This document shows positions 37,850 to 63,918 of a stretch of 64,000 nucleotides of DNA, piece after piece. The stretch spans positions 56,924-120,923 of the forward strand of contig CAVTUQ010000011.1 in the NCBI GenBank assembly GCA_963737905.1, written 5' to 3'. How positions within the stretch are numbered: the first letter of the stretch is position 1; each line of letters begins with the position of its first letter. This DNA comes from an uncultured delta proteobacterium (lineage in GTDB: Bacteria > Desulfobacterota > Binatia > UBA9968). The notes under the pieces are model-generated. The model did no database searches. It had not been told where the DNA came from and saw nothing but the letters and a program-made list of their open reading frames with translations. The translations under genes were made by a program, and so were the position numbers.

Positions 37850-37936
37850 GCGAAAGTGGCGGAATTGGTAGACGCGCAGGATTCAGGATCCTGTGGGGTA
37901 ACACCCGTAGGGGTTCGACTCCCCTCTTTCGCACCA
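37850..37936 (+). tRNA. tRNA-Leu(CAG)
   Basis: Acceptor GCGAAAG/CTTTCGC-A-CCA; anticodon arm CAGGA-TTCAGGA-TCCTG; long variable arm; GGTTCGACT. Confidence 0.96.
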
Positions 37937-42594: not shown

Positions 42595-43107
42595 TCACGC
42601 CTTTAAGGATTGCTCTTGTCCCGCAATTCGGCCCTGAAGTTCCATCAAGCCGTCCAGAACCGCTTCAGGCCGTGGAGGACATCCTGGAACATACACATCG
42701 ACTGGAATGATACGATCAATTCCCTGAACCGTCGCATAATTATCGTAAAAACCACCGCTCGCGGCACAGGCACCAAATGCCATCACCCACTTGGGCTCGG
42801 ACATTTGCTCGTAGACACGCTTCAGGACCGGGGAAAGTTTGTGATTGACCGTGCCTATGACCATCAATAGGTCCGCCTGCCTTGGGCTGAAGCGCGGCAG
42901 CAGAGCACCGAAACGGTCGATATCGTAAGGCGACATCGACAGAGACATATACTCCATCGCGCAGCAGGCTGTCGCGAACGGGTATGGAAACAGTGAATAC
43001 TTCCGCGCCCAACCTACCGCCTTGTCCACACGAGTCAGCACAACGGAATCCGCCAGGAGCGCCTCTGGGCCCGTTTTTGATTCAATCGAGGAGTTCGCAG
43101 CTTGCAT
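42595..43107 (-). CDS. nuoB: NADH-quinone oxidoreductase subunit B (stand-alone)
   Basis: TACCAMEY, SPRQADL, YEQMSEPKWVMAFGACA, VDVYVPGCPPRPE. Confidence 0.93.
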   Translation of the reverse strand: MQAANSSIESKTGPEALLADSVVLTRVDKAVGWARKYSLFPYPFATACCAMEYMSLSMSPYDIDRFGALLPRFSPRQADLLMVIGTVNHKLSPVLKRVYEQMSEPKWVMAFGACAASGGFYDNYATVQGIDRIIPVDVYVPGCPPRPEAVLDGLMELQGRIAGQEQSLKA

Positions 43108-44099: not shown

Positions 44100-45122
44100 A
44101 TGGCCATTTACACTGAAATCACGAAAAAGGATGCGACGAAGATCGTGGAGGAGTTCACTCTCGGTGATCTCGTATCCTGTTCTGGGATCAAGAATGGTTC
44201 GGTGAACACGCACTACCTGCTGGAAACCAAGCGGGGTCGATTTTTCGCCAAGATCGACGAAATCAAGAGCGAACTTGAGGTAAAGCAAGAGCTAGACCTA
44301 CTGTTTCACCTCAGGAAACAAGGTTTCCCTTGTCTACAACCACTGAAAACCAAAACGGGAAGATACTACATCGAGTATAGGGGTAAATGTCTCACAGTGA
44401 GTCGCTATCTGGACGGCATGGAACTCCCAATCGACTCTCTCACCGCAAACCATCTAGGTATTCTCGGTCACACATTGGCCAACCTGCATCTAATCGGAAG
44501 AAGCTACAAGAAGGGGATCGATAACCGCTTCGGATTCAGCCGAATCGTGGCAATCTACCGGGAGGTGCGTCGACAACTCCCCTCTCACTTGAGAAACATC
44601 GTTCGGGTCTTGGATGATGAATTCTCCTACCTCGAGAATTACCTTGACAACAATCTGCCCAAGGGAATTATTCACGGAGATTTCTTCCCGGACAATGTAA
44701 AGTTCAAAGGCAGTCGGTTGGTTGGGGTGGTGGACTTCGAAGCCGCATGCAGGGGGAAACTCATTTACGATCTCGCTACCGCGGTCAACGCGCTTTGTTT
44801 CGTTGACCAGCGTTACCGCATTGACCGCTTCGAAGCCTTGATTTCCGGCTATGAAGGTCTCCGGCCTCTCTCTCTACCGGAATGGGATTCGTTTCCCAAC
44901 GAGTTACGTTTTTCCGCCTTGCGGTTTACGGTCACGCGAATTAAGGATTTCTATCTAAGAAAAACAGATGACAGCCAGCGGATCTACAAAGACTTCAAGG
45001 AGTTTTACGATAGGCTGTTGGTCCTTAGGCGGGAGAAGAGTGGCGGTATGGAGGACATACTCCTCGCTATGGCAACCGGATACGATTACCGAAAATACCA
45101 GAAATCGAAGCCTTCCAAATAA
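44100..45122 (+). CDS. thrB: Homoserine kinase type II (APH-like)
   Basis: MAIYT, GI..G..NT.Y, LANLH, LPKGIIHGDFFPDNV, VDFEAAC, LRFTVTRI.D. Confidence 0.85.
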   Translation: MAIYTEITKKDATKIVEEFTLGDLVSCSGIKNGSVNTHYLLETKRGRFFAKIDEIKSELEVKQELDLLFHLRKQGFPCLQPLKTKTGRYYIEYRGKCLTVSRYLDGMELPIDSLTANHLGILGHTLANLHLIGRSYKKGIDNRFGFSRIVAIYREVRRQLPSHLRNIVRVLDDEFSYLENYLDNNLPKGIIHGDFFPDNVKFKGSRLVGVVDFEAACRGKLIYDLATAVNALCFVDQRYRIDRFEALISGYEGLRPLSLPEWDSFPNELRFSALRFTVTRIKDFYLRKTDDSQRIYKDFKEFYDRLLVLRREKSGGMEDILLAMATGYDYRKYQKSKPSK

Positions 45123-45126
45123 TACT

Positions 45127-45573
45127 CTACATCCCCGGATGATCGGTTCTACGCATGCCACTCAGTGTGCTCATTTTCTTCTGCGCATCGCGACGGATAA
45201 GCCGAATCAAGGACCATAACATCAGCAGAACCCCGCAAAGAAACAACGTCCGTCCGCCCGTCAATACCACGTAAAAGAAGTTGAGTTTCACCCTCGCCGC
45301 GTTGTACTTCTCCCTATCTTCGTTGATGCGGCGGAGCACCTCTTCGTTTTTCTGATGATCGAGCTCCTGAAAGCTTCTGTAGGACTCTTCCAAGCCGGTT
45401 TGTTCGGTTCGGTGTAACAGGTTCTGATATTTGGTTGTCTCAACGGCACCCACCACCCAGTTGCCGATTCCCAGCACTAAACAGACAATCCCCGCTAGGA
45501 GTAAATAACTCGAGTAGATATCACGCGCCTTCACTTTATCTATCCGTCTAACAGAATTCCCGGTTAGGGTCAA
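45127..45573 (-). CDS. Hypothetical two-TM membrane protein (start uncertain)
   Basis: Two hydrophobic helices flank a charged helical segment; fills the gap between thrB and the riboswitch promoter. Confidence 0.6.
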   Translation of the reverse strand: MTLTGNSVRRIDKVKARDIYSSYLLLAGIVCLVLGIGNWVVGAVETTKYQNLLHRTEQTGLEESYRSFQELDHQKNEEVLRRINEDREKYNAARVKLNFFYVVLTGGRTLFLCGVLLMLWSLIRLIRRDAQKKMSTLSGMRRTDHPGM

Positions 45574-45585
45574 TTTTACATAGCC

Positions 45586-45614
45586 TTGACACGCCGCGGC
45601 TACTGGGGTACGGT
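45586..45614 (+). promoter_or_regulatory. Putative sigma70 promoter of the SAM-riboswitch operon
   Basis: TTGACA-17 nt-TACGGT, ~20 nt before riboswitch P1. Confidence 0.55.
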
Positions 45615-45635
45615 CACCCCCAAGTAGTGTCTGGA

Positions 45636-45749
45636 CACCTTATCCAGAGTGGTGGAGGGAGCGGCCCTTCGAAGCCACAGCAACCGGTTTCTGAAAACGG
45701 AAGGCGGTGCTAATTCCTGCCCCCTTAATTCGGGGGGAAAGATAAGGTG
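45636..45749 (+). promoter_or_regulatory. SAM-I (S-box) riboswitch aptamer
   Basis: P1 CACCTTATC/GATAAGGTG; conserved ATCCAGAG, GGAGGGA..GGCCC..GAAGCC, CAGCAACC, GGTGCTAATTCC, GAAAGATAAG. Confidence 0.95.
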
Positions 45750-45754
45750 AGGTT

Positions 45755-45800
45755 AAGCCTCTTCTTATCTTTAAGTTAGATTGGGAAGAGGTTTTTTTTT
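45755..45800 (+). terminator. Riboswitch expression-platform intrinsic terminator
   Basis: Stem AAGCCTCTTCTTA/TGGGAAGAGGTTT followed by T9; CTTATCTT in the 5' arm can alternatively pair with AAGATAAG of P1 (antiterminator). Confidence 0.85.
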
Positions 45801-45805
45801 AGCGG

Positions 45806-47896
45806 ATGTTCCCTTTGAATACTCGTCTTACCACAGACCAGATCGAGCGCTACAGCAGGCAGATCATGATCCCCGATCTCGGCGGTAAGGGACAGATACG
45901 GCTCCGGCAAGCTCGAGTTCTAATCATAGGGGCCGGTGGCCTAGGCTCACCGGCGGCCCTCTATTTAGGGGCTGCAGGTGTCGGGACTCTCGGCCTGGTC
46001 GATCCTGATCGTGTGGAATTGTCGAATCTACAACGCCAAATCCTCCACACCACGCTTGACCTCAGCCACCCGAAGGTAGAATCGGCCAAGGATAAAATCA
46101 GCAAACTCAACCCAGAGGTGGAAGTCGTCATCTATCCCGTCCGGCTCGAAGAAGACAACGGCGCCGCTATCTTTTCGGGGTATGATTTTATCGTTGACGG
46201 CAGCGACAATTTTCCCACCAAATTTTTGGTTAACGATCTTGCGGTGAGTATGGACATTGCTTTTTCTCACGCCGGAATCGTCCGTTTGCAAGGACAAACG
46301 ATGACCGTCGTGCCTCGGAAAAGCGCCTGCTATCGTTGTCTGTTCAGAGAGCCACCTCCTCCCGGAGAAATATTGAATTGCCAGCAAGCCGGTATACTCG
46401 GAGCCGTTGCAGGTACCATGGGTTCGATCCAGGCAACCGAAGCGATTAAGTATCTTGCCGGCTTTGAGGAAGGATTGCTGACGGATCGATTGCTGACGTA
46501 CGACGCAAAATCGATGAAATTTCATATGATAGACGTAAACAGAGACGTTCATTGTGCCGCATGTGGTGTAGAACGGATCGCACGGCGAGTGTCTCCCCAA
46601 GCACCTAAAACGCAAGCAACGGAAGGGATAACCATGAGCTTCGTTAGAGGGCTCCAATGCAAGGAATGCAGGCAGGAATATCCAAAAGAGCCGCTGCACG
46701 TGTGCGAAACCTGCTTCGGTCCTCTGGAGATTGTGTATGATTATGACGGCATCAAAAAGTCCATCAGCCGTGAAAAGATCGCCTCCCGTGACAAAAGCCT
46801 GTGGCGCTATCGCGAACTACTGCCCATCGATGGAGAACCGCAGGCGGGTCTTTATTCGGGCTTTACCCCTCTCGTCCGCGCCCGGAGGCTCGGCGAAGCG
46901 TTGGACGTCAAAGAACTCTACATCAAAGATGATTCAGTGAACCACCCCACTTTTTCATACAAAGATCGCGTTGTTGCTGTTGCGATATCAAAGGCCATAG
47001 AGTTCGGATTCGACACCGTCTCCTGCGCGTCGACTGGAAATCTCGCCAATGCAGTCGCGGCCCACGCCGCGAGAGCTGGGTTGAACTGCTACGTTTTTAT
47101 CCCCGAGGGCCTGGAACAGGGGAAGATCGTCGGGTCCGCCATTTATGGACCCAAAACCGTCGCGATCAAAGGAAATTACGATGACGTGAATCGGCTCTGC
47201 AGTGAGATCGGCGACAAATACGGCTGGGCCTTTGTCAACGTCAATCTGAGACCCTATTACTCAGAAGGCGCCAAGACGCATGGCTTCGAGGTGGCGGAAC
47301 AGCTTGGCTGGAAGCTTCCCAAACACATTGTCGTTGCATCCGCCGGGGGAACGATCCTGCCCAAGCTTGCAAAGGCTTTCAAAGAATTGATTAAAGTCGG
47401 TCTGGTCGAGGATACCGGCTGTAAGATTTATTCCGCTCAAGCCGCCGGCTGTGCCCCGATCATCAACGCGCTCCAAGAGGGAACTGATTTGATCAATCCC
47501 GTGAAACCAAACACAATCGCGAGCTCCATCGCTATTGGAAATCCGGCAGACGGCCACTATGTCCTTCAAGCCCTGCGGGAGTCGGGCGGATGGGGCGAAA
47601 GCGTCACCGACCAAGAAATTCTCGAAGGGATCAAACTGTTGGCCCAGACCGAGGGAATATTTACCGAGCCAGCGGGTGGAACCGAAGTGGCTGTGACCAA
47701 GAAACTCATCCAAAAGGGCAGAATCCCCCGGGACGAGTCCCTCGTCATTAGCATCACCGGCAACGGGTATAAGACTCTGGAAGCGGTCGCGGGCAGTGTC
47801 GAAAAGCCGTTGACCATCAATGCGACCCTGCGAAACTTCGATGACCTTTACCAACAGCTCAACCCGACGGTTACAGCAAAAGCCGCGAGCGGTTAG
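45806..47896 (+). CDS. In-frame fusion of a MoeB/ThiF E1-like adenylyltransferase (aa 1-~255) and a threonine-synthase-like PLP enzyme (from Met277 at 46634)
   Basis: RYSRQ, GAGGLG, SNLQRQ, DGSDNF, CYRC/CAAC zinc site; then CKEC/CETC, LWRYRELLP, PTFSYKDR, ASTGN, IAIGNP, ITGNGYK. No stop between the domains. Confidence 0.9.
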   Translation: MFPLNTRLTTDQIERYSRQIMIPDLGGKGQIRLRQARVLIIGAGGLGSPAALYLGAAGVGTLGLVDPDRVELSNLQRQILHTTLDLSHPKVESAKDKISKLNPEVEVVIYPVRLEEDNGAAIFSGYDFIVDGSDNFPTKFLVNDLAVSMDIAFSHAGIVRLQGQTMTVVPRKSACYRCLFREPPPPGEILNCQQAGILGAVAGTMGSIQATEAIKYLAGFEEGLLTDRLLTYDAKSMKFHMIDVNRDVHCAACGVERIARRVSPQAPKTQATEGITMSFVRGLQCKECRQEYPKEPLHVCETCFGPLEIVYDYDGIKKSISREKIASRDKSLWRYRELLPIDGEPQAGLYSGFTPLVRARRLGEALDVKELYIKDDSVNHPTFSYKDRVVAVAISKAIEFGFDTVSCASTGNLANAVAAHAARAGLNCYVFIPEGLEQGKIVGSAIYGPKTVAIKGNYDDVNRLCSEIGDKYGWAFVNVNLRPYYSEGAKTHGFEVAEQLGWKLPKHIVVASAGGTILPKLAKAFKELIKVGLVEDTGCKIYSAQAAGCAPIINALQEGTDLINPVKPNTIASSIAIGNPADGHYVLQALRESGGWGESVTDQEILEGIKLLAQTEGIFTEPAGGTEVAVTKKLIQKGRIPRDESLVISITGNGYKTLEAVAGSVEKPLTINATLRNFDDLYQQLNPTVTAKAASG

Positions 47897-48018
47897 AAAT
47901 TCATACGTTTATCGGGTGCGGTGTCGCACCGCCCCATTTCGCGAAGGATTGTATCAAGAGTCGTAATTACAAAGTTTTCAGCTATTATTTCTTCTATCGA
48001 TCCGAAGGAGGTTATGCT

Positions 48019-48306
48019 ATGCCAGTGCAAGTTCGTGTTCCCACCCCGCTCAGAAAGTTCACTCAGGGCGCCGATGAGGTTAGCGCGCAGGGCGCCAATA
48101 TTAAGGCGTTAGTAGACGATCTTGAGAAGAATTTCCCCGGCATCAAGGAACGGATCTGCGATGAAACCGGAAAGATCCGCCGTTTCGTAAACGTTTACCT
48201 CAACGGCGACGACATCCGTTTTTTACAAAACCTGGAAACCGGACTGAAAGAGGGAGATAATATTTCTATTGTCCCGGCCATTGCCGGGGGCGCTAATTCT
48301 CACTAG
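48019..48306 (+). CDS. Ubiquitin-like sulfur carrier (MoaD/ThiS/CysO family) with C-terminal GG-ANSH extension
   Basis: VRVPTPLRKFT, RRFVNVYLNGDDIR, VPAIAGG-ANSH; RBS AAGGAGG. Confidence 0.93.
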   Translation: MPVQVRVPTPLRKFTQGADEVSAQGANIKALVDDLEKNFPGIKERICDETGKIRRFVNVYLNGDDIRFLQNLETGLKEGDNISIVPAIAGGANSH

Positions 48307-48314
48307 AGCGGACG

Positions 48315-49316
48315 ATGGCACGAGCCACACCTAATCTCCGATTGGTTTCGGTCCCGCCAGCAGAGCTGAAGAGAGCCGAATCCGTCCTGGATCTGATCGG
48401 CGATACTCCTTTACTGGAAATCCGAAACCTCGCGGAAGGGCTGCCGGCCAGGGTTCGAATTTTTGCTAAACTGGAAGGATTCAATCCGGGCGGATCAGTT
48501 AAGGACCGGGCAGCATTGAGAATGGTCCAAGAGGGAATTCGTACTGGAAATCTTCGACCGGACAAGACAATTTTGGATTCCAGCTCGGGAAACACGGGGA
48601 TCGCACTTGCCATGATCGGTCGCGTGTTCGGCTATCCCGTGGAATTGGTGATTCCGGAAAACGTGAGCAGGGAACGGAAGCAAATCATTTATGCCTACGG
48701 CGCAAAGATCATCTATAGCGATCCGTTGGAAGGCTCCGATGGCGCCATCCGTCTCTGCAGAAAAATCCTCGCCGAAAGCCCCGATCGCTATTTCAAGCCG
48801 GATCAGTACTTTAATCCAATGAATCCTCAGGCCCATTATGAAACTACGGGTCCGGAAATCTATCGGCAAACTCAGCAAACCATTACCCATTTCATCGCGG
48901 GCATCGGCACGGGCGGAACCCTTATGGGCACGGGCCGATATCTCAAGGAGAGGAATCCAAACATAAGAATTATCGCAGTGGAGCCCGATGATGCACTTCA
49001 TGGCCTCGAAGGGCTCAAGCACATGGCCAGTTCCATTGTCCCCGGCATTTACAAGGAAGAAGAATTGGACGACAAGATCTCTGTTTCCACCGAGGACGCG
49101 TATGCGATGGTTTATCGTTTGAGCCAGGAAGAAGGAATTTTAGTTGGCCAGTCATCGGGCGCAGCCATGTTTGCGACTTTGAAGCTGGCACGCAAACTCC
49201 GCGAAGCCACACTCGTTACGGTATTCCCCGATTTCGGTGACAAATATCTCAGCACAAATCTCTGGGTCGGTTGGCGTGACCGGATGGCGGTCGGTAACCT
49301 GTCATTTTCCATCTAG
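48315..49316 (+). CDS. cysM: Cysteine synthase family PLP enzyme (CysM-like)
   Basis: IGDTPL, KLEGFNPGGSVKDR, SSGNTG, HYETTGPEI, GIGTGGT, GQSSGAA, FPDFGDKYLS. Confidence 0.88.
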   Translation: MARATPNLRLVSVPPAELKRAESVLDLIGDTPLLEIRNLAEGLPARVRIFAKLEGFNPGGSVKDRAALRMVQEGIRTGNLRPDKTILDSSSGNTGIALAMIGRVFGYPVELVIPENVSRERKQIIYAYGAKIIYSDPLEGSDGAIRLCRKILAESPDRYFKPDQYFNPMNPQAHYETTGPEIYRQTQQTITHFIAGIGTGGTLMGTGRYLKERNPNIRIIAVEPDDALHGLEGLKHMASSIVPGIYKEEELDDKISVSTEDAYAMVYRLSQEEGILVGQSSGAAMFATLKLARKLREATLVTVFPDFGDKYLSTNLWVGWRDRMAVGNLSFSI

Positions 49317-56431: not shown

Positions 56432-57523
56432 TTACCGCCGGTAAAACGGCAAAGGAACTATTTTGGTGCGAGCTTTTCGCCCACGAATTTCCACTTCAAT
56501 TGTGTTGTCCAGTAGCGCTTCTTCGATGGTCACATAGGCGAGGGCAATCGCTTTCCCGAGCGTGGGAGACTTCGTGCCACTCGTTACGCGACCGATGGAT
56601 CTCCCATTCTTAAATAGAGGATACTCACTGCGCGCAATCCCCGGCTCCAAGAGTTCCAAGCCGACGAGCTTACGCCGGATTCCTTCCTCTTTCTGTTTGA
56701 GCAGGACTTCACGCCCCACGAACGGCCCTTTTGCCAACTTCGTCACCCACTCCAAACCGGCTTCCAGCGGCGTGGTCGTATCGTCCAACTCGTGGCCGTA
56801 CAACGGGTAAGCCTTTTCCAACCGGAGCGTGTCGCGGGCACCTAGACCCGCGGGTTCAAGCTCCATCGGCTCCCCACTCTTGAGTAGCGCATTCCATAAT
56901 CGCTCCGCCTCCGCGGAGCCGCAATACACCTCAAAGCCATCTTCCCCGGTGTAGCCCGTACGCGCTACAAGGCACCGGATCGACGATACATCTCCGAATG
57001 CGAAAAAGAAGGGTTTCATTTCACTCAGCCGGAGGGAGGTCAATGGCTGCAAGATCTTTTCAGCCAGCGGACCTTGGAGGGCCAGCTGAGCATAGCGAGA
57101 ACTGGCGTTTTCCAACTCCACGTTGCCTTCTGCCTGCTTCTCGATCCACGCGAAATCCTTATCACTGTTCGACGCATTGACACAGATTAAGAAATAGTTG
57201 GGCTCGATCTTGTAAAAAATAACGTCATCCACGATCCCGCCCTTTTCGTTCATGAGGAGATTGTACTGCGCCTGTTGCAGGTTGATCCGCGAGACGTCAT
57301 TCGCCGATATTTTTTGACATAACTCCAGCGCGCCAGGACCACGAATTTCAATTTCGCCCATGTGACTGACGTCAAAAAGGCCTGCCCGTGTCCGAACCGC
57401 CACATGTTCGTCAATCACGCCGCGATATTGAACCGGCATCTCCCAGCCAGCAAACTCCACCATCTTCGCGCCCGCGCGTTTATGCGCGCCGTAGAGCGGA
57501 GTCCTTTTTGTTCCTTGCGCCAC
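56432..57523 (-). CDS. gcvT: Glycine cleavage aminomethyltransferase T
   Basis: [39 protein letters not shown]. Confidence 0.96.
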
Positions 57524-63841: not shown

Positions 63842-63918
63842 GGCGGTGTAGCTCAGTTGGTCAGAGCACGCGGCTCATATCCGCGGCGTCGACAGTTCGA
63901 ATCTGTCCACCGCCACCA
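63842..63918 (+). tRNA. tRNA-Met(CAT), elongator type
   Basis: GGCGGTG/CACCGCC-A-CCA acceptor with a G1-C72 pair (not initiator); anticodon arm CGCGG-CTCATAT-CCGCG; GTTCGAAT. Confidence 0.93.

Follow-up and report, generated by a model that had tools for sequence, protein, structure and literature searches.

A SAM-I riboswitch operon of Candidatus Binatia predicted to make homocysteine, and probably cysteine, on a ubiquitin-like sulfur carrier

Why would a gene annotated as a threonine synthase lie behind an S-adenosylmethionine (SAM) riboswitch, together with a ubiquitin-like carrier and a cysteine synthase? The question is raised by an operon in the genome of an uncultured Candidatus (Ca.) Binatia bacterium from soil (GenBank assembly GCA_963737905.1), of which we analyzed a stretch of 64,000 nucleotides (positions 56,924 to 120,923 of CAVTUQ010000011.1, contig C11 of our source genome G000). 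This whole stretch is called the window, and coordinates given without a contig refer to it. The operon runs from a SAM-I riboswitch with terminator through an E1 enzyme, a ThrC-like enzyme and a ubiquitin-like carrier to CysM. An initial annotation, made by a model from the letters and their open reading frames (ORFs), had recognized these elements, and NCBIfam and Pfam assignments agree with its ORFs and families: ThiF and PALP domains in a single 696-residue frame, a ThiS/MoaD-family carrier, a CysK/CysM-family enzyme and, upstream, an APH-type ThrB_alt-like kinase. On balance we favor, though not strongly, a reading of the whole as a SAM-repressed operon of four separate genes predicted to carry out protein-thiocarboxylate-dependent synthesis of sulfur amino acids.

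A SAM-controlled operon with a MetM-type gene

The aptamer (45637–45748, forward strand, as are all operon features) scores 90.1 bits against Rfam RF00162, for which the gathering cut-off is 44.4 bits (E 3.7e-20); the source genome has no other match to SAM-I. It is followed by an intrinsic terminator (45755–45800) composed of a hairpin at 45755–45794 and a run of nine U; the hairpin folds at −17.5 kcal/mol (z = −4.0), with none of 200 shuffled sequences as stable. An antiterminator hairpin, formed by the 3' strand of P1 and the 5' arm of the terminator, folds at −17.1 kcal/mol (z = −2.5, 3 of 200 shuffles as stable), and the two hairpins are mutually exclusive. The riboswitch and terminator of the initial annotation are thus borne out, and the leader is predicted to be the usual OFF switch, in which high SAM would stabilize P1, the terminator would form and transcription would stop. 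A candidate sigma-70 promoter at 45586–45614, upstream of the riboswitch, was read from the sequence as a perfect −35 hexamer, a 17-nucleotide spacer and a weak −10 element that matches at just three of six positions. Owing to that weak −10 element it was missed by a consensus scan for promoters and terminators, which gave no excess over shuffled sequence (6 versus 4.0 and 8 versus 7.4) and also missed the long terminator. Contigs from an RNA sequencing run (X11) cover parts of the operon, and such contigs carry no information on level, strand or co-transcription.

The arrangement recurs among relatives. Our sample for gene order consisted of 50 loci, from 80 fetched, in which a close E1 homolog directly precedes the ThrC-like gene. 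The riboswitch, scored as a blastn match at its position, is found in 44 of the 47 related loci that could be evaluated, and cysM follows the carrier gene in 38 of 39; the 39th also shows cysM in a separate locus survey.

The ThrC-like gene (46634–47896, 420 residues, with its own ribosome-binding site) is annotated as a threonine synthase. GapMind 2026 lists MetO, Mec, MoeZ and MetM of Streptomyces albulus as a thiocarboxylate pathway with experimental support that leads from O-phosphohomoserine to homocysteine, and points out that MetM is frequently misannotated as a threonine synthase; PMC12172450 places a SAM riboswitch upstream of S. albulus metM. For phylogeny we used a Nonomuraea locus (L129) as a stand-in for S. 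albulus MetM (UniProt A0A059WBP2 per GapMind 2026); it has a SAM-I match of 68.7 bits, a ThrC-like gene 53% identical to that of the window and a carrier with Gly-Gly. In a tree of 26 proteins, whose groups were chosen by gene context beforehand, the window protein joins 14 carrier-linked homologs, including that of Nonomuraea, at 100/100, while seven ThrC proteins of hom-thrC or plant type fall apart from this group. The substrate loop is split consistently in the same way, reading NS(V/I/L/M)NxxRxEGQKT in true ThrC and VN(V/I)N(L/V/I)RP(Y/F)YxEG(A/S)KT in the window's group. The Ser and Arg of the ThrC loop presumably bind phosphate.

The source genome has a separate threonine synthase. A plant-type ThrC with a canonical loop is encoded on contig C17 (E 2e-165 to PDB 1e5x), and such an enzyme occurs in 29 of the 41 genomes compared. 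A Bacillus-type ThrC lies in 8 of 9 regions fetched from other genomes, and in those eight relatives its gene adjoins hom and/or HomK-like genes; altogether a ThrC separate from the MetM-like gene is present in 37 of 41 genomes. Two further ThrC-family genes of the source genome (C4, 172262–173455; C40, 86712–87958) belong to other subfamilies with a TLKEPYR-type loop, one of them frameshifted, and relatives carry several such genes each. No MetA was found in G000, the one genome searched for it, and no MetY gene was found there. MetX above cut-off is missing from all 41 genomes, with the limit that control genomes also fell below the cut-off; at an E-value threshold, 7 of 14 controls matched versus 3 of 41 here. 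MetH (C27), a Mec-like JAMM protein (C19), the operon E1 and a rhodanese-MoeB protein (C7) are all encoded in G000.

The distribution of the gene is the strongest point for a MetM-type function. It is absent from five of the 41 genomes (G002, G008, G013, G017 and G020) and broken in two (G025 and G027), and all seven are among the 17 genomes with a plant-type cystathionine gamma-synthase (CGS). Because plant-type thrC and CGS genes are neighbors, we separated the effects of ThrC and CGS. The MetM-like gene is intact in all 24 genomes without plant-type CGS (Fisher p 0.008) and, among genomes with a separate ThrC, in 21 of 21 without CGS versus 9 of 16 with it (p 0.001), both p values being overstated as related genomes are non-independent and several are incomplete. 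Loss therefore follows redundancy for methionine, not for threonine, and plant-type CGS seems to provide a second route from O-phosphohomoserine to methionine that makes MetM dispensable. In the source genome, plant-type ThrC and CGS genes follow each other directly (C17, 8277–10870, locus L033; best PDB matches 1e5x and 1i41). Of the two broken genes, one has five internal stops at 58% identity (G025, C1, 3364954–3366174) and the other is split (G027, C1, 510054–511309); both genomes have a plant-type CGS.

On the strength of the tree, the loop motif, the second ThrC, the missing MetA and MetX and the complementary distribution with CGS, we consider it very likely that the ThrC-like protein is an O-phosphohomoserine gamma-replacement enzyme of MetM type and that the MetM branch as a whole holds. 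This is what the initial annotation had proposed, for a pathway that is already published.

The cysteine synthase clade and the question of a shared carrier

The carrier gene (48019–48306) encodes 95 residues matching ThiS (PF02597) and moaD_arch (TIGR01687), 53% identical to an actinomycete MetO-like and 51% to an actinomycete CysO-like protein. Gly-Gly occupies residues 90–91 and is followed by a four-residue tail, so that the C-terminus, GG-ANSH, needs trimming. A JAMM protease is encoded away from the operon, on C19 (Pfam Prok-JAB, 62 bits; no NCBIfam family at E 1e-12), and a Mec-like JAMM protein with an intact HSH..D motif is present in 39 of 41 genomes. The three remaining ThiS-family matches of G000 have neighborhoods of moaE, thiG and aldehyde-oxidoreductase type, and no other free carrier like this one was found there. 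In nine loci (L072, L073, L076, L079, L080, L087, L088, L093 and L094) 3–5 kilobases (kb) of unrelated DNA separate the MetM-like gene from the carrier gene, and several of the carriers in these loci end exactly at Gly-Gly.

Does the cysteine synthase use this carrier too? The last gene (48315–49316, 333 residues) scores above the cut-off of cysKM (TIGR01136) and below that of cysM (TIGR01138). In a tree of 29 rows, from which L099_3849 (branch 10) was left out, its product groups at 100/99 with homologs sharing the motif G[LI]EG[LM]KH. We surveyed distant relatives in 150 genomes from the phylum of G041 (Chloroflexota-labeled); a match at E 1e-85 occurs in 40 of 151, and the best 30 of the 40 loci were fetched, with the 10 weaker matches left out and the Binatia-like contig of G041 itself set aside. 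A carrier, JAMM or E1 gene lies within 1.5 kb of the cysM gene in 19 of 19 members of the clade, versus 1 of 10 for CysM of other clades. A MetM-like gene lies within about 4 kb in 13 of the 19, and each of these 13 clusters has one carrier match. In five of the six members that lack a MetM-like gene the carrier still neighbors CysM, which makes CysM an apparent client in its own right. SAM-I is found in 7 of the 15 distant clade regions scanned (of 19), and the best plasmid match lies in a cysM-mec-moaD-moeB cluster on an Aliarcobacter plasmid. Taken together, these neighborhoods suggest that CysM probably uses the same carrier as the MetM-type enzyme. The claim of the initial annotation that one carrier serves both enzymes thus stands as far as gene neighborhood goes: the linkage, the single carrier per cluster and the lack of a second free one.

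Several observations weigh against a shared carrier. An approximately unbiased (AU) test on the 29 rows, with Nonomuraea and Tsukamurella as proxies, rejects joining the window CysM with the actinomycete mec-cysO-cysM enzymes (p 0.010); the protein thus falls outside the actinomycete CysM family, though it may work in a similar way. In searches by sequence and by fold, ordinary O-acetylserine sulfhydrylases come out ahead of Mycobacterium tuberculosis CysM; the AlphaFold model (mean predicted local distance difference test score 85, below 50 in the tail at residues 310–333) has the CysK/CysM fold. An invariant lysine, K235, aligns with an Arg of actinomycete CysM, but it aligns as well with a basic residue of the sulfide/thiosulfate-type CysM, and hence K235 does not decide the substrate. 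We take the aligned Arg to be the O-phosphoserine-binding Arg220 of actinomycete CysM, of which we found no mention in the accessible part of PMC9547175. Finally, the source genome also has CysE, CysK and CBS-like genes, and cysE scores above cut-off in 35 of 41 genomes; with these genes and the plant-type CGS present, neither the cysteine nor the homocysteine branch is obligatory in G000.

Several of these observations speak for an alternative in which the MetM/MetO branch holds and CysM works without the carrier, either as an O-acetyl- or O-phosphoserine sulfhydrylase that uses sulfide or thiosulfate and is merely co-regulated with the operon, or in another role within the cluster, for instance by providing cysteine or S-sulfocysteine as sulfur source for loading of the carrier. 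Clustering of sulfur-assimilation genes is common, the E1 lacks a rhodanese domain and needs a donor, and one distant genome (G083, locus L251) has a SAM-I riboswitch before E1-like, carrier, CysM and second E1-like genes and no MetM-like match anywhere. The linkage to carrier machinery in every clade member stands against it, as do the five genomes and the Aliarcobacter plasmid in which carrier and CysM, with JAMM and/or E1, occur without a MetM-like gene and with no other client of the carrier in view. We regard a carrier-independent CysM as rather unlikely.

A further feature of the window protein is its C-terminus (encoded at 49251–49316), which ends in FSI; 35 of 37 core loci share an F(S/A)I ending, and the tail is missing in distant members. 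PMC9547175 describes binding of CysK by the CysE tetrapeptide DFSI. The CysE of the source genome (L187) does not end in Ile, and by analogy the CysM tail is possibly a built-in active-site plug. The fullest version of the shared-carrier reading, on which our judgment is evenly balanced, would have a widespread CysM clade (Binatia, Chloroflexota-labeled genomes and Campylobacterota) of an origin independent of actinomycete CysM share the thiocarboxylated carrier of MetM; the carrier would then be a SAM-I-controlled branch point between cysteine and homocysteine, and in Binatia the FSI tail might keep the active site closed until it is displaced by the carrier. Our literature search, which included neither Hasebe 2024 nor most subscription papers, found nothing on MetM and this CysM clade acting on one carrier.

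The threonine synthase alternative and the apparent E1 fusion

A second alternative is that the ThrC-like enzyme works chiefly as a threonine synthase, or makes both threonine and homocysteine, and that the carrier serves CysM only. Here the points that count against a MetM-type function must be faced. The protein passes both NCBIfam thrC cut-offs (TIGR00260, 293 versus 167; PRK08197, 306 versus 303), and no model named for MetM stands among the 14 NCBIfam families listed. It is through architecture and the Nonomuraea proxy that the protein connects to the characterized S. albulus MetM; a search with the Nonomuraea protein gave at least 120 matches, and the named ones among those listed are Streptosporangiales. 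With 87% completeness and 6.7% contamination of the source assembly, absences from it are soft. Another recognized ThrC was not found in 4 of 41 genomes (G012, G014, G031, whose region holds another subfamily, and G033, whose region was not fetched). A Microcystis homolog 51.6% identical to S. albulus MetM acted as a threonine synthase in vitro and was considered to fall short of full MetM function in vivo (PMC12172450), and a threonine-forming side activity of the window's enzyme is plausible. As the main function, however, threonine synthesis accords poorly with SAM-I control of the gene, with the separate ThrC of the source genome and of 37 genomes overall, with gene loss that tracks CGS and not ThrC, with the altered substrate loop and with the known misannotation of MetM under this very name. 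We consider this alternative improbable.

The initial annotation had also proposed that the E1 is fused to the ThrC-like enzyme, and in the assembled sequence a 696-codon frame does join the two. The E1 part (45806–46608; ThiF, PF00899), a ThiF/MoeB-type adenylyltransferase, is intact: alignment to ThiF, MoeB and Uba4 structures shows that the N-terminal Arg, the glycine-rich loop, SNLQRQ, both CxxC motifs and the NC/SC cysteine are all kept. It lacks a rhodanese domain, and a sulfur donor would therefore act in trans. The fusion is absent from all 29 related-genome loci and from all 56 loci with E1 directly upstream (the two sets overlap in genomes). Comparison with the same-genus genome G001 reveals a single-base gap in the window between 46585 and 46586; in the ancestral frame, used by G001, a TAA at 46606–46608 ends the E1, which as assembled runs on into the next gene, and the ThrC-like part retains a Shine-Dalgarno-like site and an ATG at 46634. 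We compared the junction in four sequencing runs (X1, X3, X5 and X11), two of which yielded bridging contigs. Both of these (X5, DNA; X11, RNA; different studies, about 97–98% identical) have an extra base at 46584–46585, which restores the E1 stop. A missing base in the CCCC run near 46595 was considered and rejected, as the reads and G001 place it at 46585/46586.

The assembly is prone to such errors. When 141 ORFs from 20 regions of G001 and G002 were compared, 7 of the 100 with clear G000 orthologs were frameshifted in G000, and 6 also show a stop inside an aligned piece; in the reverse test 1 of 106 was shifted, namely the fusion itself, and none of the 105 others. Given the two locus sets, the extra base in both bridging contigs, the gap relative to G001 and the indel-prone assembly, we reject the fusion as a real feature: it is almost certainly either an assembly error or a private mutation rather than a conserved feature, and quite likely the former. 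That this strain has evolved and expresses a genuine fusion, channeling freshly loaded carrier to MetM, is very improbable despite the open frame and the contigs of the nearest strain (X1, 99%+), which lack cover at 45996–46687 and so do not directly disprove the deletion in the source strain; X3 shows no depth at the junction base. Other fusions and split genes called in this assembly merit the same check.

In several relatives two E1-like genes, some of them divergent, flank the cluster (L086, L101, L103, L104, L108, L237 and L238), and such clusters are often followed by genes for adenosine phosphosulfate (APS) kinase and ATP sulfurylase. The window has a single E1.

Substrate supply, neighboring genes and relation to known systems

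For the four separate genes we propose the following scheme, in which each catalytic step is carried over by analogy from the S. albulus and M. tuberculosis pathways. The JAMM protease encoded on C19 would trim ANSH from the carrier and expose Gly-Gly. The E1 would adenylate the carrier, as expected of the ThiF/MoeB family, and a sulfur donor in trans, for which the rhodanese-MoeB protein of C7 is a candidate, would convert it to the thiocarboxylate (carrier-COSH). The MetM-type PLP (pyridoxal phosphate) enzyme would eliminate the phosphate of O-phosphohomoserine and add carrier-COSH at the gamma carbon, as in S. albulus, to give carrier-homocysteine. CysM would, in analogy to the actinomycete enzyme, combine carrier-COSH with aminoacrylate from O-phosphoserine (our preferred guess) or O-acetylserine to give carrier-cysteine. 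The JAMM protease would then free homocysteine or cysteine and allow the carrier to be recycled, with MetH completing methionine.

O-phosphohomoserine may be supplied by the ThrB_alt-like kinase (44100–45122, forward strand), which the initial annotation had as a homoserine kinase feeding the enzyme. The kinase is there, as the single match of its kind in G000, and has counterparts in 39 of 41 genomes, but it scores below both NCBIfam homoserine kinase cut-offs (209 versus 271 and 205 versus 256 bits) and a link to the operon was not borne out. The gene precedes the riboswitch, from which a gene on the opposite strand separates it, and adjoins the operon in 1 of 40 evaluable loci, being beside it only in G000 and G001; we rejected it as an operon member, since it is outside the riboswitch unit and adjacent in that one locus. 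The intervening gene (45127–45573, reverse strand) encodes a hypothetical protein of 148 residues without NCBIfam or Pfam family, stands outside the system and adjoins the operon elsewhere only in L061. A HomK-like gene beside hom on C7 is a second possible source of O-phosphohomoserine: at 374965–377708 hom, frameshifted in the assembly, is followed by the HomK-like gene, which makes two candidate homoserine kinases. On C1 (24335–26885) a CBS-like gene is paired with a cystathionine gamma-lyase-like gene that is in three frames in the assembly and intact in G001; the pair is a probable reverse transsulfuration route. At C2 (437595–440321) and C38 (81063–86219), ORF reading and tblastn reveal genes like cysD, cysN and cysC as well as an Rrf2-like regulator accompanied by a sulfite/nitrite reductase and siroheme genes, a likely sulfide supply.

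In 32 of 37 loci a gene of 85 residues (L049, 8661–8918, and most relatives) follows cysM. We read its product as a putative NIL (ACT-like) domain. There is none after 49316 in the window, none in L061 and apparently none in the G000 genome; a NIL-like domain is fused behind the carrier in L244–L247 and behind the JAMM domain in L105. The window further contains a stand-alone nuoB-like gene (42595–43107, reverse strand; PRK14817 above cut-off) and two tRNA genes (37850–37933 and 63842–63915, both forward).

How does the operon compare with known systems? The MetM/MetO/Mec/MoeZ thiocarboxylate route to homocysteine was reportedly described in Streptomyces albulus by Hasebe et al. in 2024 (AEM 90:e01247-24). 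As in that system, to go by GapMind 2026 and PMC12172450, a ThrC homolog and a small carrier stand behind a SAM riboswitch, O-phosphohomoserine is the likely substrate and a JAMM protein (Mec) is needed and encoded in trans. The window operon differs in including a rhodanese-less E1 and a cysteine synthase, to which most relatives add a NIL-domain gene, and its host has plant-type CGS as a second O-phosphohomoserine route; it also makes do with a single carrier, in contrast to the actinomycete Nonomuraea with its two loci (L129 and L188), which are separate. In the HcyS/HcyF/HcyD/MetY pathway of Wolinella succinogenes, homocysteine reportedly forms on a carrier with a tail, a JAMM protease sees to trimming and recycling of this carrier, and O-acetylhomoserine and MetY are used; by contrast, no MetX-level activation or MetY gene was found in G000. 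The CysO/CysM/Mec+/MoeZR cysteine pathway of M. tuberculosis (PMC3227635) is alike in placing a cysteine synthase beside a Gly-Gly carrier, an E1 and a JAMM protein, in the basic aligned residue and in the extended C-terminus. It is unlike the window in that the window CysM forms a separate clade under SAM-I control and its carrier is tailed and apparently shared with MetM. Operons of ThiS/MoaD, E1, JAB and cysteine synthase were predicted in Chloroflexus, Acidobacteria, Bacteroidetes and others by Iyer, Burroughs and Aravind in 2006 (PMC1779556, row 4c). They have the same four components in one neighborhood, and their cysteine synthase probably belongs to the same CysM clade; their E1 is rhodanese-fused, and threonine synthase is mentioned 0 times in the accessible part of the paper, so that the MetM link is absent there.

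Both half-pathways, homocysteine by MetM and cysteine by CysO/CysM, are already published, and as the fusion does not hold, the surprise is moderate. The points worth pursuing are the shared carrier and the uncharacterized CysM clade, not the fusion. Within Binatia, MetM and plant-type CGS appear to replace each other as alternative routes from O-phosphohomoserine. If our reading is right, many genomes with a second "threonine synthase" and no MetA or MetX would hold a complete methionine route, and a second family of cysteine synthases that depend on a carrier would have evolved independently outside the actinomycetes. One carrier feeding two PLP enzymes would then raise the question of what sets the split of sulfur between cysteine and homocysteine.

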